From Azolla caroliniana (Eukaryota > Plantae > Polypodiophyta), in NCBI GenBank assembly GCA_043228905.1, contig JBHGNT010000014.1, forward strand, positions 9,734,001-9,798,000: a stretch of DNA of 64,000 bases, read 5' to 3'. The translations under genes were made by a program, and so were the position numbers. Each line of letters begins with the position of its first letter. Position 1 is the stretch's first letter. Below the pieces are notes generated by a model, which was given only the letters and a program-made list of their open reading frames with translations, was not told where the DNA came from and made no database searches. Of the stretch, positions 9,529 through 53,809 are shown in pieces.

Positions 9529-11267
9529 CTTCAAACACAACCCCTCTAACCCTAAACCCTAAATTCAGAAGATGAATGTAATATCCACTGCCCTCAATGA
9601 GCTACAGATCCGTAGATCTGGCTTTTCTCCCTGTCCATAAACCCTGACCCTAGCACTAACCTAACCTAACCCAGAATCGATCACATGGGTCTCACCGATT
9701 ACGCGTCCAAATCGACCAGGGCACGACGCACCTCTCCATCTCCTAAGAATCAAACCAAAAACGGCCACACATACATATCCAAAACAGGCTAACTTCTTCT
9801 TCTAATCATCATCATCGCACCTGCATCTGCATCTGCATTTGCTGCTGAATAAGAAGTAAAGCCTGGACAGAAGAATGTTTGTTTCCTGCACTACCCTAAT
9901 AATAATAATAATGCACATAAAATCTAAATGCTTGGCCTTTGCTATTTTCATCCCTTCATTCCACTTAGCCATTCACAACACAAGAACACCAAGGAACAAA
10001 ACATGTTAATTTACTAGTTCATATTTTAGAACACAATTTCAATACATATGTAGATAAGAAGCCAAAGCCCGACACATGGGGTTCCCCGAGTTTCTACCAC
10101 CACAGTTCGGCAACCATGTCTTTCTTTTGGAAAAAGGCTTGAAATCCCAGTAGAAAAGCCGGTAAATTAAGGAACACGCTCTAGGAAGCTCTTTCCACTT
10201 CATGACCACTGACTAGCAGCAAAGTCGGATACGGTTGAGTGGAGTGGCCCCGAGACAAGGGGGAGTTGCCAATAAACAGTAACCCATCGTGCTCACAACA
10301 AAAGATAATATGGTGTCCTTGTTTCCTCCCCTATACTTAACATTGTTTCTCTATATATGATGCCAATGTATACTTGTGATCCAGAAACATGAGTGCATCA
10401 TCGATTATCACCCTGCCAGTATCTTGCCCGTGCCCGCTACAACTTTGCTTGTGTGTGCTCCTCTGCATTGTAATACAAGTTTGTTTCTTGATGTCCAAAA
10501 GGGGGAAATCTCTATATCGTAATCACTTTGTATTAAGAGAGGTGGGATAGAAGAAGTTGCACTAAGAAGGGAGATACTGGCATAGACTTTCTACCATTGC
10601 ATCCATGGGCATATGTATAGATATTCTCACATGATGTCCAAATCCATTAGTAGCCATTCTTTGCAACCACTATGTTGGCACGCTTGTGGTACAACCACAT
10701 ACTTCATTGCCTCTTTATATGGTGACCTCCATTGATGCATGACATCGCCCGCAAAGATCCATTAACAAGAGGACATAGCCATGTGTGTGCACACCCATTT
10801 CATTTTTATAGGATACTTTCGATTACACAATCTTTGAGTAACCATGGTAGAGGAGAGACAAACAAACAAGTGCAACATCAAAGAACACATTTCCGAAATC
10901 GTTCCATAACATGAATCACCAATAGGGCACAACCCTGAAACCTCATTGAACAAAGTAGGGCCATCGACTTTAAATCCCAGTTCAAGCTTTCAAATAGAGT
11001 GCACATGGGATATATCTTGGGAAAGGTGCCGAAGAGTTTCAACCGAGGAGAGACCCAAGGACACGAGTGAAGGAACGCGATGACAGAGATAAGAATGTTC
11101 GAGGGTTTGAGCATGTGTGTCGCATGAAATCATAATGATATGTATAATGAACAGAGACGACAATGGATGTCGAGATGGCATGCATTGGGCGGACAATGAC
11201 GGATTGACCAAATGTAGGTCCCATGGAGTTCTAGGATGGGGTGTTATTGCCACTGCTCTCCATGGTT

Positions 11268-28948: not shown

Positions 28949-31900
28949 TCGCTCGATCACGTCATTCTATTGCGGCGTGTATCTATAGGAGAATTTGTGT
29001 TGAATTCCTTCCTTTTGCAGATAACTTGAGAACTGGTCGGAGAAGTACCCCTTTCTGCTATCGGTCCTAAGAAATTTGATTTTATGGCTTGTCTCCCGTT
29101 CGGAAAGGCTCTTCACCTTTAAGAAATAGGAGAAGACTTCGCTTTTTCTACTCTATCGTGCATGCCCAGGTATGCCGAGTAAAAACGTCGATGAAAGTCA
29201 TGAAATATCGGCTCCCACCAAGACTCACGTTTTGTGTCGGTCCCCATACATCCGAATGGATTATATCAAACTTGTTTCGGCTCTGATTTCTTTCATTTGG
29301 GAATGGAAGTCAGTGATGCTTCCCTAATTGGTAGGCTTCACAGTCTTGGCCCGTTCGGCTATAGAATTTTGGTAAGCCGAAAACAATGTTTTTCGTCTGT
29401 ATCTCTCAAAGCTGTGGGAAGTTGAAGTCACCAAACCACTTGTGCCATAGGTCGATATCTGATTTGACCTTTCGCACTTTCGCAAAGATAACAGTGCCTA
29501 CGTCATTGGTCTCGAGGAAGAACATCCTCCCTTCTCGGTGCCCTTGCGCGATTATCTTGCCTTCCTCTTCTATGAAGCACCCAAGATGAGTATATCGAAC
29601 TTGCATGCCTTGGTCGACTATCTGTCCGATTGACACCAAATTTTTGGAGACTGTTGGCACATGCAAGACATTTCTCATGATTCCCTTCTGGCCGACATGG
29701 CTGAGAGGGACATCTCCAATATGTTCAATGGGGTGAGGTGTGTCATCACCAGTTTTGACGACCCTCGGCTACTCCGGCTTTTCAGAGTCGAGAACCACTC
29801 TTGGTGATTCTTCATGTGGTTCGATGCTCCCAAATCCACATACCATACCTCCTTCGACCTCGAGGTATTCACCGCCATCGAATTGGCTTTGTGCTTCATG
29901 ACGAAGGTAGGGCCCGTACAGGCTTCTCTGACGCCTATCTGCGTCTCCTCGGCTCGATCCGACCTTGTTCGAATCGGTTCATTTCTTCCAGCACTCGCTC
30001 TCTGTGTGGCCCTTCTTGCCACAATACCAATAGTCAGGTGCAGTTTTCCCTTGCTAGCTCCCGGCGTCGCCTTGGCTCTCCCCACTTGCGGAGTGTTTGG
30101 AACTGTTGTCGGCATTCCGATTATGCCGTAAAATCTGCTCTTGTCGGTCGCCTACATTGTGTGCTGACCCGCCTTGTCCACCAAGACCATGGGGCCTCTT
30201 TACCTTCGTATACAACATTTTGTTGTCGGCGTGCGTACTCGTCGACTCACCCACGTGGTTTTCTTCTACGAGCAAGATCAATTGAAGCTCGAAAAACGAC
30301 GACGTGTTCTTCCTCGTGCAGACCGCCATTCAGAATGCTCCGAACTTAGATGCTAACCCTCTAAGGTAAACCTGCACCATTTCATTCTCCTTGACGTTCA
30401 CGTTGACGGAGGTGAGGGAGTCGTAAATCTCCTTGATTTGGGCTGTATAATCGACCATAGACAGATCTTTTGGCCAGACATTGCTTAGCTCCTGCTTGAG
30501 CTAAAATTTCCTGGCTGTCGTGCTGGTTACGAAAATCCTTTTGAGATTCTCCCACGCATCCTTTGGCGTCTTGGCATTCTGAATGTAGCTCAAGAGCTAA
30601 TCGCTCACACAGAATGCAAAATAGTAGAGAACTCTGCTTGTCACCTGTTCTAAGGCTCGGAAGTCTCTATGTGTCGATTCGGGTGTTGCATCATTAGCTC
30701 CTTCAACATAACTCTAGTAGCCATGGCCAAGCACGTACTTGTGCATCTTGAACAACCAAGATGCATAGTTTCTCCTATCGAGCTTTTCTGTCAGAAGCAA
30801 GCTTCCCATTCCTTTGTCCATATTTCTATCATATCTTTTCCAAAAGCGAGAAAACTTGACTCTGTCTTGAGTGCTTGCTTTTCTGTCGGGTGCGGAGGAG
30901 TCTAAACCCTCACGCTCTGATACCATGTAATAGAATACGATGTGCGGAAGTGTGTGTAAAACACAAAGAGTATACAGTTGATGTTCGGAAACACAACAAT
31001 TCGGTAAATGTAGAGAACACAGAGAATGAGAGAGAGAGAGAGAGAGAAGACACAAAATTATATTAAGAGGAGTAATGCTCTGTTACTCATACTTTGGGCT
31101 CAATGAGCAGTTTTTATACAAGCCCTAACGAGTGGGCTAACACTAATTCTACGTACAATATTCCTATTTACTATACTAGGAATATAGTCTATTAACGGCC
31201 TACCCGAGTCCCTCACCACACGGCTCTCGATTCTCCATCCTATGGCCGATTTGGGTCTCCCTGATCAGTCTTCAACCGATTTGGTTCTCAGCTTCTTCAG
31301 CCGCTCGACCCGAGTTTAGCTTGCTCGCTCAACTGTCTATTCCACACAAACTGATATCAGAGCAAGGTTCTAAACCTTGAAGAAAATGGAAGAGTCATTC
31401 AGAAGCATGTTCAAGGTCACCAGCTCCAACTACCGAGTGTGGAAGTCGAAGATGAGGGACATGCTCATGGTCAAAGATCTCTGGCTGCCGGTACAGTTCA
31501 GGGACATGAAACCGGACAAGATCGATGCCACGATGTGGGAGGTGATGCATATGAAGATGAGGGTATACATTAGATGCTTCATTGACATGAGATTGTACAA
31601 AAAATTTAATGAAGAAAGTAAGGCGCACATGCTCTAGGAGAAAATCGGTACCATGCTGGAGAGTAAAAACGTCGTAAATCGGGTTTCAGTATTCCGGAAG
31701 TTAGTGAGACTTCGGTACCAGGACAGATCCAGCATGGCGGAGCACATGAATGTATTCGAGGGGTTCATAAATCAAACAACCTCACTAGAAGTACCTCAAG
31801 CCAATGAGGTACTTGTATTGGTCCTGCTTGGTTCTGTCCCGGATAGTTTGGAGACGCTAGTTGTCACCTTGGGTAACGTTGGGCCGGAAGGAAAGGAGTT

Positions 31901-34716
31901 GTCCCTAGCAAGGGTAAAATCGGAACCAGTGGTAGCGTTGATTGACCACGGGTCGGAAATCAACCTGATGTCTATGGACTTCTAGGGGAAAATGGCCGAT
32001 CAACACAAAACACGGGTGGAAGATACGTGCGACTACGAGAGCCACGGAAAAACTACACAGGGCTTGCCCGAACGTCAAAGTGAGCGTCGAAGACGTCGAC
32101 ATAAACCATCACTTTTTCGTGCAAGAGACATCTTCCCACCTCGTCATCCTCGGCGAACCATACATCATGGCGGCGAGAATGGAGACGAAAGTGCTGGACA
32201 ATGGCTCGGCTTACGCACGGGGGAAAAGTCAAGATGGTTGTCATTCCGTCCAGTTTTTGACGGTGAGGAAGAATCACGAGTGGAACCGGGACACCCTCGG
32301 AAATAACGACCGGGTGGATTTTTAGAAAGGGCTATCAAGGCATGGGGCCGCGATAGTCCGAATGGCCGGAAAATTCCCCACATCGGTAATATAGGTAGGA
32401 AAATTTTGTTCTCCGACAACAGGGGTTGTGCCATAACTGGCATTAATGGCCGAGAAAGGAAACGGGCCGAGATGTGCTTAAAGGTGTGCGGAGCCTTGAC
32501 CCACGACGAAAGGATTGGGGAAGCCGTGGAGGCGGTCTCGTTTGATGACACCCTTGGAGAAATCGGGAGGGTAGTCGAAGGAGGCCTGAGTGAAGACGGG
32601 GTCATACCGGTCAACTTGGTTGACATGTACGAAGTCATTGCGGACTTTGAAAGGGAAACTAGGGCGCATCAGATCACTCGAGTAGACACCAAGTACAAGA
32701 CTGTGGACCGGAAGGTGAAGCCCGTCACAAATCCCTTACTTGAGGGCAGTTGGGAACGAATAAAGGGGGTCGCTACCGACCCCAGCTTGCGAGATCCGGC
32801 TGGCATAGGACACCGTTTCACCGACAAAACGCTATGAGAGCTGAAGATTGGTGGGGGTGGCTTCCTATTGCCGGCGGAAGAGGACCGGTTCAGGAGGATG
32901 CTCGAGAGACACGGGAAAGCCTTCGCATTCTCGCCGGGAGAGATCGAGTGCGTCGACCTGAACATTGTTGAACCGATGGTGATCTTTATGGTGCCGCATG
33001 TGCCGTGGAGTCTCAAACTGATTCAGGTACCGAAAGCTCACATGTCGATTCTGATGGAGCTCCTTAAGTAGAAAGTGGAGTTGGGCATCCTCGAACTGTC
33101 GAGTGCCCCTTACTCTAACCGGTGGTTTACGGTACCGAAAAAGAATGGTACGTTGCGCTTCATCCAGGAACTACAACCGTTCAATAAAGTGACCATCCAC
33201 AATACGGGAGTCGGACCGTCAATCGATGAGTTCGCGGAAGCCTTGGTTGGAAGGTCCATATACTCGGTCGGAGACCTATACTCGGGGTACGACCAATTCC
33301 AGCTAGCTGTAGAAAGCAGGGACATCATGATGATGTGAACCCCTCTTGGCCTAGTTCAGATGTGCACCCTACCACAGGGAGGAACCAACTCGGTGGTACA
33401 CATGGTGAACGCAATGAACAGAGTTATGAGGGACTACATCCTGGACATCACCATGCCATTCCTAGACAACATCCCTATAAAGGGATGTTTGGAGGACACG
33501 AAGGATGAGTCGATCGGAGCAGACGAGTGCTGAAGGTTTGTCATGGACCACATCTCTGACTGTGAGAAGATACTATAGAGGCTCGAGGGCGCGCAGCTTA
33601 CCTTCTCTGGGGAGAAGTCGGCCTTCAGACAGCCAGAGATCTTAGTGGTTGGCCACCTATGGGGGTCGTACGGTCGGAAGCCATCCCCGGCCAAGGTAGA
33701 GGCCATCACGGCAATGAAGGAGGAGTGTGGATCCATCACGGAGGTCTGGTGTTTCTTGGGAGCATGCGCCTTCTACCACATATGGATCCCTCATTACGCG
33801 CACATCGTCGAACCACTCTACGGCTTGCTAAAGAAGAGCAAGAAATTCAAATGGGCAGAAGAACATACCGAGGAGTTTTGGAGGCTAAAACGAATGCTTA
33901 CCGTAGCACCAGCTTTGTGCAAGGCAGTATACACATTAGGTGGACACCAACCCAACCGGAATTGGGTGGGTTGTAAATCAGGAGGACGAAAATGGCACGC
34001 GCTTCCCTATCTAGTTCGGTGCGAAGGTATTGAGCGAGCGACAGTGAGGATACACCCAAGTCAAGCGCGAACTATGGGGTATCGTTTCGGCGGTTAAGGT
34101 CGACAAGGACTACTTAATCGGGACAGAAGTAATCATAGAAACGAACTACCTGCCGATTCTCGGTATGGTCTCTAGATGCGCAACTCCTGACCTGGCCATG
34201 CTCAGGTGGATTGCGTACATCAAGTCCCTGAACCCAGAGATATGACACATATCAGAAAAAGACAACGCCATGGCCGATATGCTTTCTAGAGTGAGGTTCG
34301 AGAACGAGGACGGCATGGTATCGGAAGACGAAGAAGTCGGTGCGGACTTCTTCAAATCGGCGAGGGCGGGGGTAAAAAGGCGAAGCACTCCGCCCCTAAA
34401 CGAGTTCGACGAGGATGACTACGACGGGGAGTGGCTTCTAAGTGGGAGATTCCTTAAAACAATGATGATGGATGCCTCGATGACTAGGGAAGAAGCAAGT
34501 CAGCTCCGGAGAAAGGCATACTGGTACTTCCTGCGGAACGGGAAAATCTAGAGGTTCCCGAAGAGGCGAAATGATGCGTTGCTCCGAGTAATAGTGCGGG
34601 CGGAGGATCAAGGGAGACTAATGTCAGAATTCCACAAAAGCCCTTGGGTCGGGCACCGGGGTACATGGGCCACATTCAAGAAGCTAAAGGAGAAATACTG
34701 GTGGCCAGGCATATAT

Positions 34717-37700
34717 TGTTGAGAAGCACGCTCAACAAAGGTATGGGATGCTTATTGAGAAATAAGCTATAGTAGCTATTAGCTAATTAGCTACTAGTGG
34801 ACATAAAGGTGAAACAGCTATTTAGCTATGCACAACTATTTAGCTACTGACAGCTAATTAGCTGCATATATAAGTCACTTATAACTTAGGTAAAAAGTAA
34901 GTAGAAAAGTAGAAGTGTAGAATAGTAAGTAGAAGAGTGAGAGTAGTGTAGAGAGTAGTAAGACCAGAAAACTGACGAGAGCAAGTTGAGCTCTGCATGT
35001 AATGAAGTAGAAGCTTTTGGACTGTGCAAAGGTAAGTCTCTTTCCCCCTTCTTTTCTGTCTTGAGTACTAAACGGTCCAGCACATCACGATCTGTTGTGC
35101 ACACAGAAGAGTCGTAGCGCCTTCGTAACATGGTATCAGAGCAGAGTTGCTCGTAAAGAAGATTAGAACAGTATAGAGATCTGAGAAGTTTGTTTCTGGT
35201 TGCTAATTTGAATAAGAGAGAGTTGTCTGTGAAGTTAACCCTAAATGAAAGAGAAAATGGCTATAAAGAATGCAAGCCAAATAGTTACAGAAAAACTGGA
35301 TAAAAACAGTTTCCCAGCATGGAAATTCAGAATGACAAACTTCCTTATGGGGAAAGGATACTAGGATTATATTGAAGGAGACATACAAGAGGCTCCAGAG
35401 ATCCCTGAAGAAAATGCATCTACTGCAACAAATTAAAGCATTTAAGGAATGGAACCAAGGGGCAAGAAAGGTATTGCATTGGTTGTCACTTAGCATCTCA
35501 GATTCAATGCTTGGACACATACAAGATGTTATGCTTCCAAAAGAAGCTTGGGACAGTTTAGTAAAACTGTTTGTAGTGAATACAAAGGCAAGAAAGCTTC
35601 AGTTGAAGATTGAGCTAAATACCTTGGAAAAAGGTAAGATGTCAGTAAATGAGTATGCTCTGAAAATAAAGAGCATATGTGAATCACTTGCTTCTATCAA
35701 TGTGAAGGTAGAAGATGATGATAAGGTGGAAATATGCTTAAGAGGTTTAGGACCTCAATATAAAAGCTTCAAAACATCTATTCTCACAAGGGATAGCATC
35801 CCAAGTTTTCCAGATCTGGTTTCAATGCTTGTAGTAGAAGAAAGAAATCAAATGGATGATGTAAACAAAGCAAACTTAGAGAATGAGGGACAAGCCCTCT
35901 ACAATAGTGCTAGAAGAGGCCGAGGAAGAGGCCATGGAAGATTTGGTTCAGCTAGAACCAACAATAATAGTTATCAAGGAAGAGGACAACAAACCATTAG
36001 TGGAAGAAACAACATCAGAGGCAGGGGGAGCAATTGAGGCAGAGGTAAGCAAAATTATTCAAATGATGATGGTTGTTGGTATTGTGGAAAACCAGGCCAC
36101 ACACAGGCTGAATGTTATAAAAAGAAAAATGATGAGAAAAGAGAGAATAGACAGTAAAATAATTATGCCTCAACCAGTGAAGACTGTGATAAAGATGGTG
36201 CATTTGTGATGCAACATGAAACAACAGCAATGGCTAAATGTTCACAGAGATGCAATGAAGAGTTTATGTGGTATGTAGATTCTGGGGCATCTAATCATAT
36301 GACAGGACATAAAAACTGGTTTGAAAGTCTAAGAGAACCAGATATTCCTGGTTATGTACAGACAGGTGATAATACTACTCACCAAATAGAGCATGTTGGA
36401 GATATCCCATTGTGGGAAGAAAAAGGAAAAACAAAGTATATGCTAAATGTGATGCATGTTCCAAACCTTGCAAAAAATCTAATTTCTGTTGGACAGATAG
36501 TAGAGCAAGGAATGCAGGTTAAATTTAAGCAAAGTGGATGCTTCATGGAGAAAAATGGAAAGCTCATTGCAAAAGGAAAACGAGAAGGATGTTTGTGTTA
36601 GATGTGGATATGCCTAGGAAGATTACAGCCATGTTTACAGAAGGAATGAGTGTAATCTCAGAAGTGGAAATGTGGCATAAAAGAATTAGTCACATAAGTA
36701 TGCAAACATTGAAAAATATGTTGAGGAAAGATGTAGTGGCTAGACTGCCTAAGTTGAAAGACTGTGAGATGGGAAAAATATGTGAAGCATGTCAATATGG
36801 AAAGCAAAACAGGTTGCCTTTCCCTCATGAAAGACATGTAAGCCAAAATTTGTTGGATTTGGTACATACAGATGTATGGGATCCAACAAAAAATGCATCA
36901 ATTAGTGGATGTAAGTTTTATGTAACTTTCATTGATGATTGCTCAAGAAAAACGTGGGTTTACTTCATGGAAGAAAAAAGTGAAGTATTTGATTGTTTCC
37001 GTAAGTTTAAATGTATGGTGGAAAAGCAGGCTGGAACTAGGATAAAATGCTTAAGATCTGATGGAGGAGGAGAGTACTCCTCAAATGAGTTTTCTAATTT
37101 TCTATGCAATTAAGGAATAAGAAGACAGTTCACATGTAGATATACTCCACAGCAAAATGGAGTTGCTGAGAGAAAAAACAGAACTCTGGTGAACATAGCA
37201 AGAGCCATGATGACAGAAAAAAATATGTCATTGTATTACTGGGCAAAAGCTGTAATAGGTGTATAAATAGGTGTATAACATCTGGAGTACATGAGGTAAC
37301 TCCTGAAGAATGTTTCTATGGCAGAAAGCCGAGTTTAGGACACTTAAAAGTGTTTGGATGCCTTGGCCATGTTCATGTACCTGCTGAGGTGAGAAGTAAG
37401 CTTGATCCAAAAGCTGAAAAATGTATTTTTGTTGGATATTCAGAGGTGCGAAAGGGTATAGATCCTATAACCCTTTGACAAAAAAGATTGTGGTAAGTCT
37501 AGAGGTAATATTTGATGAGTTGGGCAGCTGGTACAACCCAAAACAAAATGTAGAAACTGATGAAGACTGTGAAAATGAAGATAGAGAAAAATCTGAAAAT
37601 GTAAGAGATAACCACAGAGATGGAAGCAATGTTGGACAACAAAGTTCAACATCAATGGAATGTACTGGATCATCTGGAAGCTCAGTTAGTAAATTTGAAT

Positions 37701-40015
37701 CAAATGCATGGAGTGGAAAAAATGCAAGACACAAAATATGATGATAAAAAGGGAAAACAGAAAATGCAAGAATATGAAATGCTTGATGATGGATCTAGAA
37801 ACATGGAAGATCTAGATTCAGATACATCATTGGATGATGAGCTTGGTATAGGATCCCTAAAAATCCTTGGTATGGAAAGAGCAATGAAGGATGCAAATCA
37901 GAAACTTAGAAGATTAGATAGAGAGAAAAAGATTGTTGAAAGATTTTGTTATGATACATATATGGCTATGCACTATGCATATATGTCTAAGGTGGTACAG
38001 ATCCCTGATCCAAATAATTTCGAAGAAGCAAAAGCTGAGAAGAAATGGGTGGATGCAATGCAAGAAGAGATTGATGCATTGGCCGAAAACAGAACATGGG
38101 ATTTAGTGAAGTTACCAAAAGGAAACAATGTGGTAGGTTGTAAATGGGTCTACAAGACAAAGCATGATTCCAATGGAAATGTTAGTAGACATAAAGCAAG
38201 ACTTGTGGCAAAGGGATATGCCAGATGCAAGGTATTGATTATGATGAAACATTTGCACCGGTTGCAAATATGGCAACATTGAGGACATTACTTGTTGTAG
38301 GTGCAGCCAGAAGATGGGTTTTGCATCATATGAATGTAAAAAATGCTTTTTTACATGGTAACTTAGAAGAGGAGGTATATATGTGTCAACCACCAGGTTT
38401 TGAAGACAAGAAGCATCCAAAATATGTATGTAAGTTGAAAAAGGCTCTTTATGGACTGAAACAAGCACCAAGAGCATGGCACAGGGAACTTTTAGAATCT
38501 CTGAAAAATTTTGCTTTCAAATGTCAAAGGTTGATCCTTCATTGTATGTAAAAAGGATGAATGAGTGCATCGTTGTGATCTTGATATATGTTGATGATCT
38601 AATCATTGGAGATGATTCTATGGAAGAGATAAGTAAGTTGAAGAAAAATCTGGAAATGCAATTTTAGATGAAGGATTTGGGAGAGCTGAGATACTTTCTT
38701 GGCATTGAGATAATAAGATCTGAGAGTGGTATATATATGTTGCAAAAACAATATGCAACAACTATGTTGAAGAAGTATGGTATGCTTGGATGCAAACCTA
38801 TTGGTATACCACTAGATAAGAACTGCAAATTGAGGTCTGATTTGGGAGCCAAAATAGAAGATGTAAATATGTACAAGTCTATGGTGGGTAGCCTCATATA
38901 TTTGACCATAACAATACCTGATTTGAGCTATGTTGTTGGATTAATCAACCAGTTTATGCAACAGCCAACAAAGCCACATTTGGACTACATAAGAAGAATT
39001 TTGAGGTATGTAAAATCTACTCAAAATTATGGACTGTTTTACAGGGCTGATCTGGACATAAACCTGGAAGGATATACAGATGTTGATTGGGTTGGAAGCC
39101 AAACTGACAGAAGATCCACAAGTGGATATATGTTTACATTGGGAAGTGCAGCTATTTCATGGAGTGGCAAGAAACAAGCTATTGTTGCATTGTCAAGTAC
39201 TGAAGCTGAGTATAGAGGAGCTGCAATAGCTACCTGTGAAGAGGTATGGATCAGAAGATTTCTTTCTTATTTGGGAGAATATATAGATGGTGTTGTTACA
39301 ATTTGGTGTGACAATATCAGCAGCATTCAGTTGGCAAAAAACCCAGTGTTCCATGCAAGAACAAAGCACATTGAAGTGCATTATCGCTTTGTTAGGGAAA
39401 AAGTGATTGATGAAGAAGTGGATCTATGTAAGTACAAATCAGCAAGTTGCTAATACTCTTACAAAGGGATTGAGCATGGAAAAACATAGACAGTCTAGAG
39501 ACATGATGGGAGTTATAACCATCGGCATGGTAGCTGAAAAGCATGAAGAAAAGAGGATTGAAGATGACCCCAAGAAAGAATAAGTTGAGCTTGAGGGGGA
39601 GTGTTGAGAAGCAAGCTCAACAAAGGTATATGATGCTTATTGAGAAATAAGCTATAGTAGTTATTAGCTAATTAGCTACTAGTTGACATAGAGGTGAAAC
39701 AACTATTTAGCGACAAACAGCTATTTAGCTACAAACAACTAATTAGCTGCATATATAAGTCACTTATAACTTAGGTAAAAAGTAAGTAGAAAAGTAGAAG
39801 TGTAAAATAGTAAGTAGAAGAGTGAGAGTAGTGCAGAGAGTAGTAAGAACAGAAAACTAACGAGAGCAAGTTGAGCTCTACGTGTAATGAAGTAGAAGCT
39901 TTTGGACTATGCAAAGGTAAGTCTCTTTCCCCTTTCTTTTCTATCTTGAGCACTAAACGATCCAGCACATCACGATCCATTCTGCACATAGAAGAGCCGT
40001 AGCGCCTTCGTAACA
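34717..40015 (+). mobile_element. Full-length but frameshifted Ty1/Copia; 414-bp LTRs; TSD TATAT
   Basis: LTRs 34717-35130 and 39602-40015 (about 30 mismatches by eye); PBS TGGTATCAGAGC 35131-35142; PPT 39591-39601. Gag, CWYCGKPGHTQAEC, WYVDSGASNHM, INT RSDGGGEY, RT YVDDL, RH. Removal restores the host frame WWPGIYKSVHDF. Confidence 0.97.
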
Positions 40016-41754
40016 TATATAAGAGCGTGCACGACTTCGTGTCAACATGCGAAAGCTGCCGGATGCAGTCGGTGGTTCGACACCGCGACGAACTGCACCC
40101 AACATACCCACCGGCCGTGCACTTCAAGTGGATGGTCGACTTAATGACGATACCAATGGGAGAAGGCCAGAAGCGATACCTGGTGTTGGCAAGGGAAGAC
40201 CTAACGAACCAGGTGGAGGGCCAAGCATTGACAAACAAGACCATCGTGGTGGTGTGCAAGTTTATGATCGAAGATGTCATATGCTGATACGGGTGCGTAG
40301 GAAAGATTGTGGCTAACCGAGGGGAGCTAGATGCGGAGGAGGCTGAGGAACTGTTCGACCGGTTAGGCGTAAAACTGTCCCTCACAACGGCGTACAACTC
40401 CGAAGCAAATGGAAAGATTGAGCGAGGCCACGGTCCGATCGTAAAGGCCATTGTGCGTGCATGTGAAGGACGAGTCGATGACTGGCCGACGTTGCTCCCT
40501 TACGCGCTATGGGCGGACAGGACTACCCATAGTTCGGTGATAGGGTACATGCCGGCGAAACTTATGTATGGGCAGAAACCCATCATGCCAGTGGAGTGGA
40601 CGATCGCCTCCTGGACGGCGATCGATTGGGCTAACGAAATGAGCCGAGAAGAGTTGCTGGCAGCACGCATCCGACAACTCGAGCGAAGGCCGGAAGACAT
40701 AGAACGGGCCACGGCAAGGGTGAAAGAAGCGAGGATCCGGAACAAGGCCAAGTTCGACCAAACACACTAGCTCCGGCCGAAGAAGATAGAGGAAGGCGAT
40801 TGGGTATTAGTTTACAATAGCAGCCTCAACAACCAACATCGGTCTACGCATAAGTTCGCAAAATGGTGGTTCGGGCCATACGTGGTAATCAGCGCCAATG
40901 AATACGCGATGTATCATCTCACGAAGCTCGACGGGACTCGAATTAGGACACCGGTGGCCGGGAAGCAGATGAAGGCCTTCAAGAGGCGGAACGAGGCGGA
41001 ACGAGACCCAGCGGTGGGAGCCGAAAGCAGCAATTCAGAAGAGGAGGACGAGTAGCAGATGGCCCTAAAATCCCTCACTAAATTCGCTATCCGGCACATA
41101 CCAGAGGATGTGCGGTTTGGTGGGGGTGGATGTCGTGAAGATTCCGGGCCATAGGAGGAAATGGTGTGAAACACATGGGAACACTAGTGTGCACGAGTGC
41201 ACATCCCTACTGAATTAAACTATGTAAATACTAGGTATTGGTAGGATGAGGGGTGCTAGGTAGTTAGAGCATTAATAGGAGTTCCGACGTCACGTAGGGG
41301 GGAGAGTTACGAGGAGAGAATCTAGGGAGGATAGTGATAGGTCTTAAAGGCTTTTGTAACAGTCGCTCCTTTTGTAGCGATAGGGGCAGCCTCAGACTGT
41401 TTTAGGGACGCCATCTAGAGGAGAAGAGGGGAGGCAAATGAGAGCTTGTACGCACTACAAAGTCCTACGGCTAATGACTAGAAGGCGCTCCTCCCCCCCC
41501 TGCTCGAGTCAGATGCCCGATTGCTCCCGACCAGGGGGGTCGACCTTCCACGTACCTACGTATCTCTTTGAGTATCTAACTATTGGGGAGTTCTACACTC
41601 CATCACCGGCGATGATCTGGTTGTAATCATTTACCGCACTGTGCGCGCGTTTTAATTAATATAACCCTATCTGCTTAATATAACCCTATCTGCTTAATAC
41701 AAGTTCTTCACCACGTCTCTGTCTATCTGTTTGCGTGGGTGTTTGTGGCTACGC

Positions 41755-41843
<89 letters not shown>
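41755..41843. repeat. (CT)n microsatellite within the Gypsy LTR
   Basis: Roughly 90 bp of uninterrupted CT. Confidence 0.95.
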
Positions 41844-41846
<3 letters not shown>

Positions 41847-44063
41847 ACTACAGTTCTCTGTCTACCGCAGTCTCGTCGCCTACGCGGAGTGCGGACTCTC
41901 CCCACCTCACTTCCCTGATTCCTTGGTTCAAGACCCCCGTGGTCCTACCCCATTTCTACGCATCCGCGTGAATCTCCGCGACAGCGTAAGTTGAGACATC
42001 GTTTTTGACAAGTCCACATCCTAGTATGCACCAGAGACAACTTCGACTCCAATTCCGCTCGACCTAGAATCCGCCGAACAAGAGATAGAGGATGAAGATC
42101 GCCTTATGCATATGTTCGAAGAAAGTTCGATCACGACCCAACTGAGCGGACCACAAGAGCCTCCGAGCGATCAAAGCACATCTCGACCGAGTCCGAAGCT
42201 AGACAAAGGGAAGGCCAAATTTTGAAGTATGAAGACGATCATTTCGACGGCATCGAATCGACTCACTCCCTTGATAGTGAGTTCGAAGGCCTTGACATCC
42301 GGACAAATGGAGTGAAGAAAGCCTTAGAATCCGCAAACAAGAAGCTTCGAAGATCCACCCATGAAAAGAACCATGTAAGCCGATTCGGTTATGATGAGTA
42401 CATGGCATACCATACGCATTTATGATGAAGGTGGCAACAGTGCGGGAGCTGGAAACCTTTTCCAAAGCCGTGATGGACCCGCGATGGATCGAAGCAATGA
42501 ACGAGGAGATGCGTGCACTACGCAAGAACAAGACATGGGATCTCGTTCCCCACTCACCGCACAAGAAGGCAATTGGCGGCATATGGATCTACAAGGTGAA
42601 GTATAATTCCGACAGCTCCATCAACCGCTACAAAGCTCGACTCGTAGCGAAAGGATACGCACAAACACATGGAGTCGACAATGAAGAGACCTTTGCCCTG
42701 GTGGCAAAGATGACGACGATGTGGACCGTAATTGCACTCGCAACGGCGAAAGGGTGGCACCTCCACCAGACGGACATCAAGAACGCTTTCCTCCAAGGGG
42801 AATTAGAAGAGAAGGTGTACATGGTACAACCTCCCGGCTTTGAATCGCACATTCATCCGAAAGCCGTGTGCCAACTCAAGAAGCCACTCTACGGCCTCAA
42901 GCAAGCACCGCATGCTTGGCATTCGAAGATTACGCAATATCTTCATCAAATCAGTTTTTGCATGTCGAAATCTGACAACTCCCTCTACGTACGACATGAC
43001 TCTAGAAGCTTAATTGTGATCATCCTATACGTGGATGATCGGGTCATTCGAGGTGAAAGTCTAGTCGACATCAACAAGGTCAAGTCCCTCCTCTCCGGAA
43101 AATTCGGGATGACGGACATGAAGGAGCTCCATTACTTCCTGGGCATCGAAGTAATTCGGATTCCGACTAGCATTATGATCTCTCAACTGCACTACATCCT
43201 CAACTTGTTAACAAGTTCGGGATGACTGAGTGCAAATCGGTGGCCGCTACGCTGTCGGGGTAGTTGTGCTTCGTGCGGCGAAGTCGCAGGGACTAAGGTT
43301 AAGGGGAGTTGAAGGAACTTTTATTAGGCTTGCGCGCAAATGTTAGGAAGATAAAGGATATGAGGAATAATAGTTTAAAGTAATATGTGTGAGAGAGAGA
43401 CTAGTATAGATAAAAGATAGAGGCAATGTATGATTCAAGACGCAAGATAGAGACAAAGTATGATTTAAGACAAAAAAATATATGATATGAACATGACGTA
43501 TATTATGAATACAAGATTTTACCAACTTTACAATGTTTGGTAGCAAGATGAACCCTTTCTCTACCGACCCTTGATTCGAACTCTTGACTCCAACTTGGAA
43601 ACACAAGCCTCTTCACCAACAAGCTAACTTGTTTGTTTCTTTGATTATCTTATTTCTCTAACTTTCTCTTGATTCCCCCTTTTTTCATCCCTTAATTCCT
43701 TGCCTCTCTTTATAGGTTCTCTCATGCATATGATGATATGGGGGTGCATTGCATGCATGTAATGCATGTGATGCATGTGATGCATGATCGCCATTTGGTG
43801 CACATGCTTTACATGTGATGCATGATAGCCATCATGCTCATCTAAACTCTAATGTATGAAGAAACGTGTCATAAGTATGATAAAAATATAACTATAGAAA
43901 ATAACTTATCTTAATGGTATATGCTTCGTCCTTGGTGTGTGAGGTTATGGGTTCAAGTCTCTCAAATGTTACTTAATACAATATTCAAGTTTATTTTTAT
44001 ATCGTGAAGCAAATCCTTCACGACACCCAGCCCCTCTGAACTTGCACACTAGTTGTGCAAAGT

Positions 44064-45071
44064 TCATCCAAAGTCTTGGAAAAACTCTTCATTCCATTTC
44101 TGAACTGGATGTTCCCTCAAGCATTCTTTGTTTCTTTCATGGTTGGGCCTCACGGTTAAGAATTGGACAGTCTTTCTTCCATCTTGACTCTTGATTCTCG
44201 CGAAAGCCGAACCATCATCAATAACCTTTGTTTCCATCCTCATTGCAGTGATGTAGGGCTGACCAAGGATGACGGGGTAGGTTGATCGATCCTGCACAAA
44301 GAAATTTTGATTCACTGACACATCACCAATTGTTACCTTCACACTAGGACATGCTCCAAATAGATCCTCCGTAGTCTCTGTGGCAGCTCTTATTTTCCAC
44401 CCATGATTCTTGTCGATCGGCCATCGTCCTCGAGCGTAAAATTCCGATGACATCATGTTAATCTCGGATCCATGATCGATCAAAGCAATACATGGAATTT
44501 GCTGCTCCCCAATTTTTGCAGGTGCCTCCGTTGTTGCTCGAGCCCAATGGTCCCTTGTATAGTGACTCCTATCCCCTTCATGGACGCCAACATCATTCTG
44601 GTTTTTTACACTTGCAGCATTGATGGTGCCAGAATACAAATCTTGGAGTGTTGTTGCACACCCTCCCGTAATTTCCTCCGTCACTTGTCTCTTCCTTCTA
44701 ATAATATCTATGATAACTTCATGAAATTCTTTCTTTGCTATACCCAACACTTCTCTTAAAGTAAATTCTACCTTACTATTTAGTATTCTTGTTTCTAGTA
44801 CCTTTTTTATATCCGTCGTTTTTTCTAGGTCTGAGGCAAGCTTGAAAGATGGGCCTGTCTTTCCTTTTACTTTATCAGCTTCCTTCGGCTCAGTAGCACC
44901 CTTTTCCATCTCCCTTCTCTTCTGTTCTCGTGTCTCATGTCTCTTTGTTGGATCAGCTTCCTCAGCTCTCTTCCGCTCCTCTTCCACTAGCACATCTCGT
45001 GCATTCACTTGGGCGAATGCTGATAGCGCGTCTACTGGATCATTCCATCCAGTGAAGTTTTCGTATTTCAT
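44064..45071 (-). CDS. Gag C-terminal/aspartic protease part of the TR-GAG-like element (one-base frame break from gag)
   Basis: ALIDHGSEINMM and VILGQPY protease motifs; clearly homologous to 31922-32325 (QFLTVRPNHERN vs QFLTVRKNHEWN). Confidence 0.85.
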   Translation of the reverse strand: MKYENFTGWNDPVDALSAFAQVNARDVLVEEERKRAEEADPTKRHETREQKRREMEKGATEPKEADKVKGKTGPSFKLASDLEKTTDIKKVLETRILNSKVEFTLREVLGIAKKEFHEVIIDIIRRKRQVTEEITGGCATTLQDLYSGTINAASVKNQNDVGVHEGDRSHYTRDHWARATTEAPAKIGEQQIPCIALIDHGSEINMMSSEFYARGRWPIDKNHGWKIRAATETTEDLFGACPSVKVTIGDVSVNQNFFVQDRSTYPVILGQPYITAMRMETKVIDDGSAFARIKSQDGRKTVQFLTVRPNHERNKECLREHPVQKWNEEFFQDFG

Positions 45072-46182
45072 CTCCCGCTCTTTTTAATTCATCCACTCGA
45101 ACCTTCCCTTTTCTTGCATAATCCATCACATCTTGCCAAAAGCCAGATCCACCATATGAGTCTTCTACGTGCAACCCTAAGGTTGCCACGGATTGTATCG
45201 CTTGAGTCGTTTCTCTCTCGGCATCTTCCATTAGCTTTTTCATTCCTCCTCGCCCGAAGTTGAGTTGAAGTGGTTGTCGAGTCTCTGTCGAGTGAATCTT
45301 GCCCTCTTGATAGTAGATTTTATTATGATTAAGAGCATCCCTATGCTCTTGACAATCTTTCTTCTGGTGGTCGATACTATCACACCACATACACCTTCGG
45401 ACCATTCCACCTCCCTGCCTTGATGAAGTCGAGCTTTGTCCCGATTCTAGCTTTGTCACTTTGATCGACAAGTCTTTCATACCTTTCACCAATTCGTGTA
45501 AGAGTGATTCTTCTACTTTCTTTTCTCCCGACTCGTTCCCCGTTTCTTCATCATTTCTGTCGGGCAACTCCATAAACCATAACTTTCTTTTGCAGAAATG
45601 GGCGCACACCCTTTTCACCTCCTCCCAGTCTTCGGTAAGTCCACTTGGACTATTCTGATCTTCTAAAAGCATTCCCAAGTCCTTCCTGTCTTTAATATTA
45701 GTAGCTTGTAGAAACAATATTACTTTATCTGGCACTATTATATTTCTATCTCTAACATTTAGTTGCTCAAATCTTTCAGAAAACTCTTTTAATACTTCCA
45801 AAACACTTAAATGTTTATTAGACTCTACCCAATCCATGAAAGCTCGCCTTATCATCCTTGACATATCGTTGAGGTTGTATGCATTTAGCAATGCTCTTTC
45901 GAAAGTCGCCCATGTCTGATGTTCCCTCTGTAGCTCCTGGATCCTCTCTTGTAGCCCAATCGCAGTGACTCGACTAAAGCTATTAATTTTTGCAGCTTCG
46001 TCGACACCGCGTTTAAGCATTTCTTCATTATAAATCTTCAAAAATCTTGTTAAATTTATACCTTCGAAGATTCCTACTCGTGTGAGAATATTGTCGACGG
46101 CTTTGTCGATGCTTGCCATCATCCCTTGTTCCCGCATCACTCGTTCCATCATCGTACACATAAGCCTCATTTGCTCCTCCAT
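45040..46182 (-). CDS. Gag of the TR-GAG-like element
   Basis: 380-aa ORF starting just after the PBS; FEGINLTRFLKIYN, WATFERALL, zinc knuckle CMWCDSIDHQKKDC. Confidence 0.85.
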   Translation of the reverse strand: MEEQMRLMCTMMERVMREQGMMASIDKAVDNILTRVGIFEGINLTRFLKIYNEEMLKRGVDEAAKINSFSRVTAIGLQERIQELQREHQTWATFERALLNAYNLNDMSRMIRRAFMDWVESNKHLSVLEVLKEFSERFEQLNVRDRNIIVPDKVILFLQATNIKDRKDLGMLLEDQNSPSGLTEDWEEVKRVCAHFCKRKLWFMELPDRNDEETGNESGEKKVEESLLHELVKGMKDLSIKVTKLESGQSSTSSRQGGGMVRRCMWCDSIDHQKKDCQEHRDALNHNKIYYQEGKIHSTETRQPLQLNFGRGGMKKLMEDAERETTQAIQSVATLGLHVEDSYGGSGFWQDVMDYARKGKVRVDELKRAGDEIRKLHWME

Positions 46183-47056
46183 TTCTCCTCGTCGCCGCTT
46201 TCACGTCGGGTTCACCAAATGTGTCGGGGTAGTTGTGCTTCGTGCGGCGAAATCGCGGGGACTAAGGTTAAGGGGAGTTGAAGGAACTTTTATTAGGCTT
46301 GCGCGCAAATGTTAGGAAGATAAAGGATATGAGGAATAATAGTTTAAAGTAATATGTGTGAGAGAGAGACTAGTATAGATAAAAGATAGAGGCAATGTAT
46401 GATTCAAGACGCAAGATAGAGACAAAGTATAATTTAAGACAAAAAAATATATGATATCAACATGATGTATATTATGAATACAAGATTTTACCAACTTTAC
46501 AATGTTTGGTAGCAAGATGAACCCTTTCTCTACCGACCCTTGATTCAAACTCTTGACTCCAACTTGGAAACATGAGCCTCTTCACCAACAAGCTAACTTG
46601 TTTATTTCTTTGATTATCTTATTTCTCTAACTTTCTCTTGATTCCCCCTTTTTTCATCCCTTAATTCCTTGCCTCTCTTTATAGGTTCTCTCATGTATAT
46701 GATGATATGGGGGTGCATGGCATGCATGTAATGCATGTGATGCATGTGATGCATGATCGCCATTTGGCGCACATGCTTTACATGTGATGCATGATAGCCA
46801 TCATGCTCATCTAAGCTCTAATGTATGAAGAAACATGTCATAAGTATGATAAAAATATAACTATAGAAAATAACTTATCCTAATGGTATATGCTTCGTCC
46901 TTAGTGTGTGAGGTTATGGGTTCAAGTCTCTCAAATGTTACTTAATACAATATTCAAGTTTATTTTTATATCGTGAAGCAAATCCTTCACGACAACGCCT
47001 CTCGATCGAAACCTCAAACTAGATGTTGACTCCGGCACAGACGAGTGCAAGCCGAC

Positions 47057-50000
47057 TGTTGGAAGCAATGTCGTCAATGCGGAAGATCAAGAAGCACTCG
47101 ATTCCTGTTTATTCCCTGTGTATGACAGTTTCTATGTCGTTGCACAGAGAGAGAGAGAGAGAGAGAGAGGCACAAAAGAGTCTTTATTTCATAAAGAAGA
47201 ATAATACAACAACCCAACCTCACAAAGAGGTTACAAGGTCACTATATATAGTGACCGACTTAGGGCAACTACCCTTTATGCTAATTACATAAATGGCCGA
47301 AACGGGATGGTGTGAATACGTCCATTATACACATGTATTCGACACTCCCCCGTAATGGGCGTATACATGGGTTATCTAAGATTACAGGTATAGACTTAGG
47401 TTCTCGGACATATCAGCTTTGTTCGAGTCGGCAGGGTCCGAAGGCAGAAGACCGAACTGGTCGGGTCGGAACAGTTGAAGCCGATCATTAAGGAACTGAT
47501 GTCGGTTGTCGGGAACCATCCTGCTCTGTGTCCGGCTCTAACCGGACTGGTTTGTCGTTACGCCCATCTGATGCCGAAGAGACCGAAAACGGTCTGCCGA
47601 AAGACACTTGGTCATTCCATCTGCGACATTGTCGGTTGTGGATATTTTCTCTAGACCGATTTTCCCTGAAATGACGCAGTCCCGAACGAAGTGATATCGA
47701 ACGTCGATATGTTTGGAGGCGTTGTGGTGAACCGGATTTTTCGACAAGGCAACAGCACCTTGACTGTCGCTATAGACAACTGGAGCTGAGTCATGGTCGA
47801 CTTGTCGAAACGTGTGCGCCAGCCGACCGAGCCACAAAGCTTCTTTTGCTGCGTCGGACGCAGCTACATATTCTGCTTCGGTCGTTGAGGTCGCTGTGCA
47901 CTCCTGAAGTTTCGACTTCCACGAGATTGCTCCATTGCCGAATTTGAAGCAGTATCCGGTTGTTGATTTCCGACTGTCTATACAGCCGGCGAAATCCGAG
48001 TCGGTGTAACCGACTACGCCTGAGGTTCGGTTCGGACCGAAAAGAATGCCGTGATCTTTTGTGCCAGCCAGATATCTGAACACATGCTTGACTGCGTTCC
48101 AATGCGATCGGCCAGGATTGTGCATAAATCTGCTAACGACTCCTACGGCATGAGAGATATCAGGCCGTGTCGCGACCATCAGGTACATAAGGGAGCCGAC
48201 TGCCGGTGCATACGGTACCGACTTCACATCTTCCCCCTCCGAACCGGATGTCGGGCAGTCTCGCTGAGAGAGCCGAAGATTCATAGGGAGCGGGGTTGAA
48301 GCAGATTTGGCTGATTGCATGTTGAAGCGTTCCAAGACACGTCCGATATAGTCGGTCTGAGACAAAAAAAGATGTCGTTTATCGCGATGCCGACTAATCT
48401 TCATGCCAAGGATGTGTCGTGCCGGACCGAGGTCCTTCATGGCAAACTTCAACCGCAGTTGCCGAACGAGATCGGCAAGTTCGCCCGCGTGGCGTCCAGA
48501 AATTAGCATGTCGTCCACGTAAATGATGAGGAAGATGGGTGATCCATCTTGAGCTGTATTGGTGAAGAGACAATGGTCCTCATCGCTTTTGGAGAAGCCG
48601 ATCGATTGGATGAAGTCGTCGAACTTCTTGTACCATTGTCGCGGTGCCTGTTTGAGGCCGTATAGACTCTTCCTGAGTCGGCAGACTAGATGTTCTTGGC
48701 CGGTCGCCACGAAGCCTTTTGGCTGCTCCATATAAATTTCCTCCTCGAGATCACCATGGAGGAAGGCTGTTTTGACATCTAGCTGAATCAGCTCCAAGTT
48801 GTCGGCTGCCACTACGCCGAGTAGGAAACGAAGGGTTGTCATTTTCACCACTGGTGAAAAGATCTCGTCGAAGTCGACGCCATATTCTTGTCGGAAGCCC
48901 TTCGCAACTAATCTGGCCTTGTACTTTGGGGTGGTCGAATCAGACGTCTCTTTTAGTCGATAAACCCACTTGCAAGGAAGAGCACGTCGGTTCCTAGGTA
49001 ATTCGACCAGATCCCAAGTCTTGTTTGCCCGGATGGAGTGCATTTCCGACTCCATCGCCAGATGCCAGGTGGCTGAATCGACAGATGTCGATGCTTCTTC
49101 GTAAGACGTCGGTTCGCCGGCGTCAGTGAAGAAAATTCCAGGAGAATACCTCTCCGGAGGTTGCGACAGTCTCTCGGATCGTCGAGGTATGATTGGACTG
49201 GTCGCATCGGGTATCGAGGTCGGATGGTCCGAAACCGAATCATTCGGCTGTGCCGAGTCAGAGTTGTCCGAGTCGGTAGTGTAAGGTTCAGCTACCCGTG
49301 GAGCTGACCGTGTGTTGAGAGCGGGGCCTTCTTGAAGGGTCGGCACATCGGAAAATGTTACCCTTCGGACTTCGATCGGTTTTTCGACTGATGGAGTCAT
49401 AGCCGACTCGTTGAACACAACGTCCGAACTTCGGACGATTTGTCTGCGTTCGGGATCCCAGAGTCGGTATCCCATTTCGTCGTCGGATCCATATCCGAGG
49501 AAAATGCATTTCCTGGACCGAGGTGCAAGTTTTCGGCGATCATCTTTCGGAATAAGGGCGTATGCCTCGCATCCGAAGATCCTCAGCTTGTCGTAATTCG
49601 GCTTACTGCCGATCCATAGTTCCTGAGGAATTTGAAGTCCTAGAGGTCTACTTGGCGACATATTGATTATGTGTACTGCCGTGAGTAGAGCCTCTGCCCA
49701 GAAGCCATCCGACAGTCCGGAGTGTTGGAGCATGGAAACTATCCGTTCTTGGATTGTCCGATTCATGCGTTCGGCAATCCCGTTTTGCTCCGGGCTGTGT
49801 GGTGCCGTAAATTCACGTCGGATGCCGCGTTGTCGGCAGAATTTGACGAATTCATCGGATTTGAACTCTCCCCCATTGTCTGTCCGAAGGCATTTCAGCT
49901 TTCGGTCGGTTTGATTTTCTACCATAGCGAGCCAATCGGTGAAGATCGAGAAGACACGATCTTTGGTGCGAATTGGATAAGCCCACACCTTTCGAGTCGA

Positions 50001-52505: not shown

Positions 52506-53809
52506 CCGACCCAATATCGTCAACTGATCAGGAGCCTCATCTATCTCACGATCACTCGACCCAACCTTAGCTATCCAGTCGGACTCCTTAGCCAATTCAT
52601 GCAAACTCTGCGAGATATCCATTTCGATTGCGCTAAGCGAGTATTACGATACGTGAGTGGCACAATGGATTACGGTGTTCTCTATGCATTGGCCACACCA
52701 ATATGACTCGAAGGGTACACAGACGCGAACTGGGCAGGCTACAAAGCTTATCAACGATCGACCTCCGGATTTGTCTTTTGACTTGATATCTTGGAGTAGT
52801 AAGAAGCAGCCTACTATCGCACTTTCAAGTACGGAGGCCGAATACAAGGGCGCAGCCATAGCTGCATGTGAAGGCGTATGGCTCAAGAGGATTTTGAAGG
52901 ATCTGGGCGTTCCCATCAAGGATCCGACTCCCATTTACTGCGACAACATGAGCAGTATATATCTGGCTCGGAACCTGGTGTTCCATGCACACACAAAGCA
53001 TATCTAAGTGCACTATCACTTTATTCGAGAGCGTGTACAGGTCGAGGATGTCGATCTTCTACACATCAACACGAATCTTCAGACAACTGACATCTTCACC
53101 AAGGCCCTAGGAGCCGACAAGCTTCGGCAATTGATGTCAGACCTCGGATTGACAATCCCTGACTTGTAAAGCTTGAGGGGGAGTACAAGTGAGAACCGGA
53201 TACCGTCCAAACCGGGTACGAGCCAAAGCGAACACCGGAGATCGTCCAAACCGGATACCAACCGAAGCGGACATCAACCGAAAGGAACCGACCCGATTTG
53301 AGCTTGAGGGGGCGTGTTGAGAATCAAGCTCAACATAGTGTAACGTGTGAACCACCCTTTGAGCATCCATGAGCACTCAAAGGTCAAGAGTCATACCACT
53401 CTCTACACATTAAACTATGTGTCATAGAATCATATTCTGTGACACATAACTAATGGGTTCCACATTCCCCATGACCATAAGACTTCACATTCCTCAAGGC
53501 TCTAGTGAGAGAATGGATGTTGTCGTGAGTAAATGAAGAGAGAGGGTGACCGTATATAAAGCACCCTCCTCCTACTTCATATCAAGTCGGTTGTGACTCC
53601 TTGTAATGCTACAATTTTGTATCTATATTCTACTTGTGAAATATACACCTTCTTCTTGAGTATTTTATTTCTCTTGCTTATTTATCTTGTGCTCTCTTCT
53701 CTCCTCTATTTTTTCTCACACACAAACACACATATCTATTCCGTTGCACAAGAATCACCATCGATTCTTTGCACATATCTATCAAAAATCCTCTATCAAG
53801 GTAGACATA

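Follow-up and report, generated by a model that had tools for sequence, protein, structure and literature searches.

A probable −1 frameshift signal between protease and reverse transcriptase in a plant Ty3/Gypsy lineage

Results

The Gypsy element in the window (the whole 64,000-nt stretch of DNA that was analysed) belongs to a family in which the boundary between protease (PR) and reverse transcriptase (RT) carries the heptamer G_GAU_UUU, a 6-nt spacer and a covarying stem. Conservation across the family indicates that this signal very probably shifts a minority of ribosomes into the −1 frame, the window copy being a remnant of it (Table 1). The recoding signal is real and likely functional; its type is familiar, its location new.

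Table 1. Features of the window that bear on the PR/RT boundary.
Feature	Positions	Strand	Basis or remark
gag-protease ORF, 3' end, ending ...VDF stop	31922..32325	+	homology to L001/L006 from 31922
Slippery heptamer G_GAU_UUU (GGATTTT)	32316..32322	+	in register with the protease frame
Gag-PR stop TAG (32323-32325) and 6-nt spacer	32323..32328	+	GTG GAT TTT TAG
Stem 1, 5' arm GGGCTATC	32329..32336	+	MFE pairing, family covariation
Stem 1, 3' arm GATAGTCC	32352..32359	+	MFE pairing, family covariation
Stem 2, 5' arm TGGGG, inside the stem 1 loop	32343..32347	+	predicted pseudoknot
Stem 2, 3' arm CCCCA, 16 nt past stem 1	32376..32380	+	predicted pseudoknot
pol (linker, RT, RNase H, start of integrase), −1 frame, broken	32322..34716	+	L006 homology
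Copia element inside the integrase region	34717..40015	+	TSD TATAT
Remaining integrase	40016..41056	+	82% identity to L006 pol residues 803-1136
3' LTR (TG...CA), then GCGT (NCGN target site)	41131..41983	+
TR-GAG-type deletion derivative, L059/L061-related family	43253..46994	−	88-91% nucleotide identity to L059/L061

The Gypsy Element and Its Site in the Window

The window element is a dead copy. The protease catalytic motif DHGS is present at 31944-31955 and the frame breaks near 31985. The sequence 5' of 31922 is lost, and a Copia gag fragment stands in its place (junction 31921/31922). Compared with the intact pol of L006, a related locus, the window pol (32322..34716) is 78% and 76% identical at the amino-acid level, and it contains stops at 32835, 33069, 33336, 33531 and 33576, a frame break near 33935 and more stops beyond. 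Owing to the frame breaks, the stops, the Copia insertion and the missing 5' half, this copy is unable to make its own Pol. The Copia gag fragment (31388-31921, plus strand) is fused in frame to the start of the Gypsy protease and is preceded by an LTR-like stretch (30925-31345) that is flanked on either side by PBS-like motifs of opposing orientation.

The first-pass annotation had proposed a −1 signal here, and on recomputation every coordinate that it gave for the heptamer, the stop, the stem arms, the GGCCG and TGGCC segments and the open −1 frame was correct. The −1 frame of the window is open over 32307-32837. On its own, the hairpin is predicted to be only moderately stable (MFE −17.4 kcal/mol; z of about −2.0 for 50-52 nt and −0.5 for the 78-nt stretch). 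Among 553 slippery-type heptamers on both window strands, two are followed by a hairpin of at least −15 kcal/mol strength at such a distance, that at 32316-32322 included. The window signal taken alone is thus modest and suggestive only; comparison with the family sequences lifts it far above chance. The summed contig depth peaked over 32301-32353 in four of four public runs; this is not a copy number, and a peak would be expected if the stretch were common to many copies.

The Junction in Related Loci

The signal was analysed at the DNA level in contigs and sequencing runs, while Physcomitrium, Riccia and Adiantum contributed protein ends only. Of 162 loci confirmed in a metagenome scan, the best 80 were used, 79 of which belong to one accession series, probably from related hosts, so that the clusters are not independent. 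Five loci that were rearranged or lay at contig ends (L021, L041, L051, L054 and L066) were dropped from the junction counts. The junction was present in the other 75 of the 80 loci (best 80 of 162), which form 32 clusters at 85% PR identity, window included. The heptamers in these 75 loci (best 80 of 162) were GGATTTT (62), GGATTTC (4), GGTTTTT (3), GGTTTTC (1) and others (5), giving G_GAU_UUY in 66/75 (best 80 of 162). The five loci with other heptamers are on contigs with a coverage of at most 2.3 and have no long ORF.

Intact relatives have a Gag-PR ORF of 700-770 codons with its stop directly behind the heptamer, and an RT-RH-INT ORF of approximately 1150 codons in the −1 frame. Pol was open for at least 550 codons in 36 loci (best 80 of 162), in the −1 frame in 34 and in the −2/+1 frame in two; in none did PR read into RT in one frame. 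As pol-frame stops occur as near as 3 nt upstream (L022 and L073), the frame change must fall at the heptamer. The stop directly follows the heptamer in 61/66 loci and is TAG in 31, TAA in 21 and TGA in nine (best 80 of 162). Readthrough is disfavoured in the −1 families, where frame 0 closes again within 65 codons. The distance from heptamer to stem 1 is 6 nt in the −1 families, within the 5-9 nt expected of −1 signals. Three loci (L056, L078 and L079) keep the heptamer and the 6-nt spacer and have their Gag-PR stop within stem 1, five codons after the heptamer; L079, from another collection series, shows the same junction arrangement.

Among genome contigs, L081 was a genuine locus and L082 a weak match; searches of viral contigs with both alignments found no relatives. 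In L081, which has 54% PR identity and comes from a different collection, the heptamer, the stop, the spacer and the stem all recur, and the −1 frame is open for 907 codons to the contig end. The L081 contig sits in a cyanobacterial genome bin; it carries a plant-type Gypsy element and is probably bin contamination.

For the codon statistics, one locus with intact ORFs was taken per 85% cluster, giving 19 families, 17 of them −1. In 19/19 intact families, G is the last base of the codon that precedes the site (joint p 7e-11 given the elements' codon use, relatedness ignored). In the 17 intact −1 families, the Asp codon is always GAT (background 0.57), and heptamer positions 1-6 are invariant in 17/17, against flanks mostly conserved at ~0.3-0.6.

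This pattern bears on whether Pol could instead be produced by a splice that removes the stop, as in Ogre, which has an intron at the PR/RT boundary (PMC6317226), or whether pol has a spliced mRNA of its own, with the U-rich tract as acceptor. The window sequence GGATTTTTAG does resemble a 3' splice site. No AG is conserved near the site in the −1 families (at best 9/17 at any offset, and none within the heptamer), TAA or TGA replaces TAG in 30/61 loci (best 80 of 162), and the Gag-PR and pol frames meet directly, leaving no spacer region. The invariant G_GAU and the fixed 6-nt stem distance would also be unexplained by splicing, which we consider highly improbable.

Protein Ends of Relatives

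The Gag-PR ORF of the TR-GAG element in the window was used as the query; the search found 165 longer homologues, and the analysis covered the best 120 of them. The C-terminal ends (best 120 of 165) were DF in 70 proteins, GF in three, NF in two and five residues after DF in 21, the latter including Physcomitrium and Adiantum proteins, so that 96/120 Gag-PR proteins (best 120 of 165) end at DF, GF or NF or five residues later. The others (best 120 of 165) comprise 15 that run on, five that end otherwise and four without the motif. All 15 run-on and four motif-less proteins are annotated gene models from Physcomitrium, Riccia or Adiantum. The residue before DF or GF can be encoded by a codon ending in G in 94/94 cases (background 0.716; best 120 of 165), with a p-value overstated by the relatedness of the protein rows, and NF follows Pro; this is as G_GAU_UUY, G_GGU_UUY and A_AAU_UUY would need.

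It could be argued that the frame break is mere decay of the window copy and that active elements keep PR and RT in frame with each other. The window copy is indeed badly damaged, and PR and RT are joined in some annotated gene models, as well as in P0296, a distant relative, a single member on a single contig with 35% identical Gag-PR, in which PR runs into RT in frame. P0296 may reflect a condition that predates the frameshift, or it may be a mutated copy. It is the sole exception among unspliced Pol calls, 84/85 of which lack protease. No protein outside the species-named gene models runs past the boundary (0/92; best 120 of 165). The joined forms in gene models, such as 14/35 Riccia models, have junction sequences that vary from model to model; they are taken for this reason as predicted introns, which are likely invented. 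Decay also fits poorly with three different stop codons at one place and with 34 of 36 long-pol loci (best 80 of 162) being −1 at one nucleotide while none is in frame. The comparison of sequences leaves this explanation close to negligible, and we regard it as already refuted for this Gypsy lineage. The earlier proposal that the boundary is a family trait is accordingly upheld, the relatives keeping the heptamer, the stop and the stem.

RNA Structure

The covariation of stem 1 was analysed in 26 sequences over 12 pairs, with seven stem positions set by hand from the PR stop. Stem 1 was paired in 79.5% of cases, compared to 27-39% for slid controls. Two-sided changes were found at nine pairs (30 cells), a level reached by at most 1/500 shuffles, and in the eight-pair core 204/208 cells were paired, with compensatory changes at 5/8 pairs. 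The shuffle tests are inflated by the relatedness of the sequences. As the stem also codes in the pol frame, plain stem conservation is confounded, and covariation is less affected. The check suggested with the original proposal, that relatives should conserve the heptamer, stop and stem with compensatory changes, thus gave a positive result in the metagenome relatives.

A pseudoknot had also been suggested, between the loop segment GGCCG (32346-32350) and TGGCC (32363-32367). That helix was paired in 42%, with 196/500 shuffles as high, and all five of its pairs occur in 1/30 sequences; it is at the level of shuffled sequence and was rejected. The idea of a pseudoknot itself is probably right, with a different partner, namely loop positions 32343-32347 with 32376-32380. 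A search of the loop against the downstream sequence in 30 sequences found a helix of 3-8 bp, 11-17 nt past stem 1, in 29/30, and of at least 4 bp in 27/30. The partners of this stem 2 are family-specific (GGGAC/GTCCC, ATGAGGGT/ACCCTCAT, CAAGG/CCTTG). The total score was 449, compared to 299 ± 12 for shuffled sequences, 381 ± 13 for partners swapped between families and 224-254 in windows further downstream; 0/2000 swapped-partner sets matched the observed score. Stems 1 and 2 are thus likely to form an H-type pseudoknot, as modelled.

Covariation shows that there is a structure, not what job the structure has. The structure might serve packaging, dimerisation or pausing, with a separate Pol made by re-initiation or internal initiation. 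L053 and L055 have an in-frame Met 3-6 codons ahead of the site, so that stop-start coupling may occur in that clade. In the −1 families, a Met before the site was found in 0/17, and the position of the first Met varies between codons 4 and 109 and is not conserved. The synonymous positions of the heptamer are fixed, which also speaks against initiation. We therefore judge this explanation very unlikely, and −1 frameshifting remains the preferred reading for these families.

A Clade with the −2 Frame Open

Two related loci differ at the junction. L053 (2834-2848) and L055 (2496-2510) carry AG_GUU_UUU, with Gag-PR ending CAG GTT TTT (G/T)AC TAG. Both keep stem 1 and stem 2, and stem 1 (10-12 bp) begins 5 nt past the heptamer, one base closer than in the −1 relatives. 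Their −1 frame runs into a stop after 0 and 5 codons, respectively, while the −2/+1 frame extends over 1151 and 1098 open codons that encode RT, RNase H and integrase. They are 79% identical to each other in PR, and the pol tree unites them (100/100 support) in one clade surrounded by −1 families. Among the cluster members listed, five more end like L053 and one like L055. L077, a possible intermediate towards the −2 clade with G_GUU_UUC, a 6-nt spacer and the −1 frame, groups with L056 in an open fork of the tree.

The L053 frame is not an assembly slip, given that the summed depth at the junction exceeded 1000 in three of four runs, that a 3% threshold revealed no indel or variant at 2835-2857, and that gap-free contigs bridge the site. 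A near-identical piece in one run may be the source of L053.

Arteriviruses shift by −2 on G_GUU_UUU, with full re-pairing in the A-site and poor re-pairing in the P-site (PMC6675879). The best spacer for a −2 shift is 1-2 nt shorter than that for −1 (PMC3458567, PMC5009743). L053 and L055 resemble the arterivirus nsp2TF −2/−1 system in carrying G_GUU_UUU with the −1 frame closed and the −2 frame open (PMC6675879), and fit the −2 preference of Lin et al. in having a spacer 1 nt shorter than their −1 relatives (PMC3458567). In arteriviruses, trans-acting proteins bound to a C-rich motif 10 nt downstream take part, and not an RNA structure (PMC6675879), whereas L053 and L055 have RNA stems in place of that motif. 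The sequences therefore make it reasonably probable that this clade shifts by −2, and it likely represents a natural switch from −1 to −2. As +1 and −2 lead to the same reading frame, +1 frameshifting could serve instead in these two loci, and UUU_U in L055 permits a +1 slip. L053 has UUU_G there, both loci keep the AG_GUU_UUU that permits A-site re-pairing after a −2 shift, and their pseudoknot is retained, one base nearer to the heptamer. A +1 shift is unlikely on these grounds, and −2 is the reading that we retain.

The TR-GAG Element and Other Elements of the Window

The name TR-GAG is reportedly taken from an earlier publication. The TR-GAG-type element has the TSD GCGT, the same PBS as the Gypsy family and LTRs that are 97.9% identical, and its internal deletion cuts directly past the protease stop. 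Its gag frame is broken near 45060, a break absent from intact relatives. The homologous site (44070-44076) reads A_GAC_TTT (A_GAC_TTT_GGA_TGA), with no stem behind. The first-pass annotation had cited this element in favour of a family trait; the stop is indeed at the homologous position, and the support that it lends is weak, as heptamer and stem are lost. The loss of the heptamer fits release from selection; as a single case, with two changes in 7 nt at ~10% divergence, it was given no weight in the argument.

The window also contains a young Copia element (47057-52506, minus strand) with an uninterrupted 1361-codon ORF and 99.3% identical LTRs, and a decayed relative of it at 57540-60082. 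An uninterrupted 372-codon ORF at 8440-9558 (minus strand) belongs to the triose-phosphate/nucleotide-sugar transporter family (Pfam TPT) and is the only host-type gene seen. No tRNA gene was found in the 64,000-nt window.

Discussion

In the mechanism that we propose from the conserved sequence, most ribosomes would stop at the adjacent stop codon and release Gag-PR. Some would stall at the pseudoknot while GAU occupies the P site and UUU the A site, and the tRNAs on these two codons would re-pair on GGA and UUU. The −1 slip would yield a Gag-PR-RT-RH-INT polyprotein of ~1850 aa, and the fraction of slips would set the ratio of Gag-PR to Pol and load Pol into particles.

In the pro-pol shift of MMTV and HTLV, ribosomes move by −1 at the end of the protease into RT, after a first shift between gag and pro. 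Unlike in these viruses, gag and protease form one ORF here, so that protease would be made at the Gag level. Plant LTR elements have mostly been described with an in-frame gag-pol. In a 2003 survey, only +1 layouts were found among the few split plant elements (summarised in PMC5009743). The same review (PMC5009743) lists G_GA as the XXX of slippery heptamers in umbraviruses and dianthoviruses, in line with the earlier statement that G_GAU_UUU is a −1 site of these viruses. A close parallel is pea enation mosaic virus 2 (G_GAU_UUU_UGG_UAG), which shares the heptamer, the near stop, a structure at a distance of ~6 nt and plant ribosomes (PMC5009743). Umbraviruses and dianthoviruses have a bulged stem-loop whose partner lies kilobases away (PMC5009743), whereas a local two-stem pseudoknot is predicted here, and unlike in those viruses the site lies in an LTR retrotransposon, between PR and RT.

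The family likely represents a Phygy-like, non-chromovirus lineage of Ty3/Gypsy, a placement from sequence that is suggested by the TSD and the PBS. A 4-bp NCGN target site is seen as GCGT on both sides of the TR-GAG element and after the Gypsy 3' LTR. One PBS motif, a putative match to tRNA-Trp, is conserved directly behind the LTR, with 33 exact matches in 80 loci (best 80 of 162). Pfam analysis of three full pol ORFs found RT, RNase H and integrase only, with no chromodomain or extra domain. Phygy likewise has a 4-bp NCGN TSD and no chromodomain, and its PBS is given as tRNA-Trp (PMC6317226); Physcomitrium homologues of the family are 62-68% identical over the PR region. REXdb treats Phygy as Physcomitrium-specific (PMC6317226), whereas homologues here also occur in Riccia, Adiantum and many contigs, and it gives the Phygy ORF organisation as ND (PMC6317226), whereas here GAG-PROT overlaps RT-RH-INT.

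In its lineage table, REXdb has none with GAG-PROT:o:RT-RH-INT as the prevailing form; the frames of Tcn1 and Selgy overlap, but between GAG and PROT (PMC6317226). Ogre and Retand (Tat) resemble the present family in having the polyprotein split at the PR/RT boundary (PMC6317226). Ogre has an intron spacer (PMC6317226), whereas the frames abut here with no conserved AG; Retand has a single in-frame stop (PMC6317226), whereas RT in the same frame was found in 0/36 loci here (best 80 of 162). The available text of a Physcomitrium TE paper (PMC7466625) makes no mention of ORF, Phygy or frameshift. No published description of this signal was found; subscription journals and Repbase notes lay outside this search, and a two-ORF annotation may exist there.

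The division of Gag-PR from pol at the protease stop means that Gag-PR-only deletion derivatives can arise cleanly, and the −1 junction between PR and RT is likely what gives rise to invented introns in moss, liverwort and fern gene models. On balance, we lean slightly towards a broader reading, in which a Gypsy lineage of mosses, liverworts and ferns would use pseudoknot-driven −1 frameshifting to make RT-RH-INT, and one high-copy clade would have moved the same pseudoknot to −2 through an A-to-U change in the slippery site and a spacer shorter by one base. If true, this would be an ORF layout that is unlisted for any plant LTR lineage, and a retrotransposon would have a natural −2 frameshift that is stimulated by RNA structure. 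Support for the mRNA-tension model of shift direction has so far come from in vitro spacer engineering (PMC3458567), and the −1 (6-nt) and −2 (5-nt) clades would make it testable with natural sequences. A lineage-wide −1 signal would further provide dozens of natural variants of one pseudoknot, usable on plant ribosomes.
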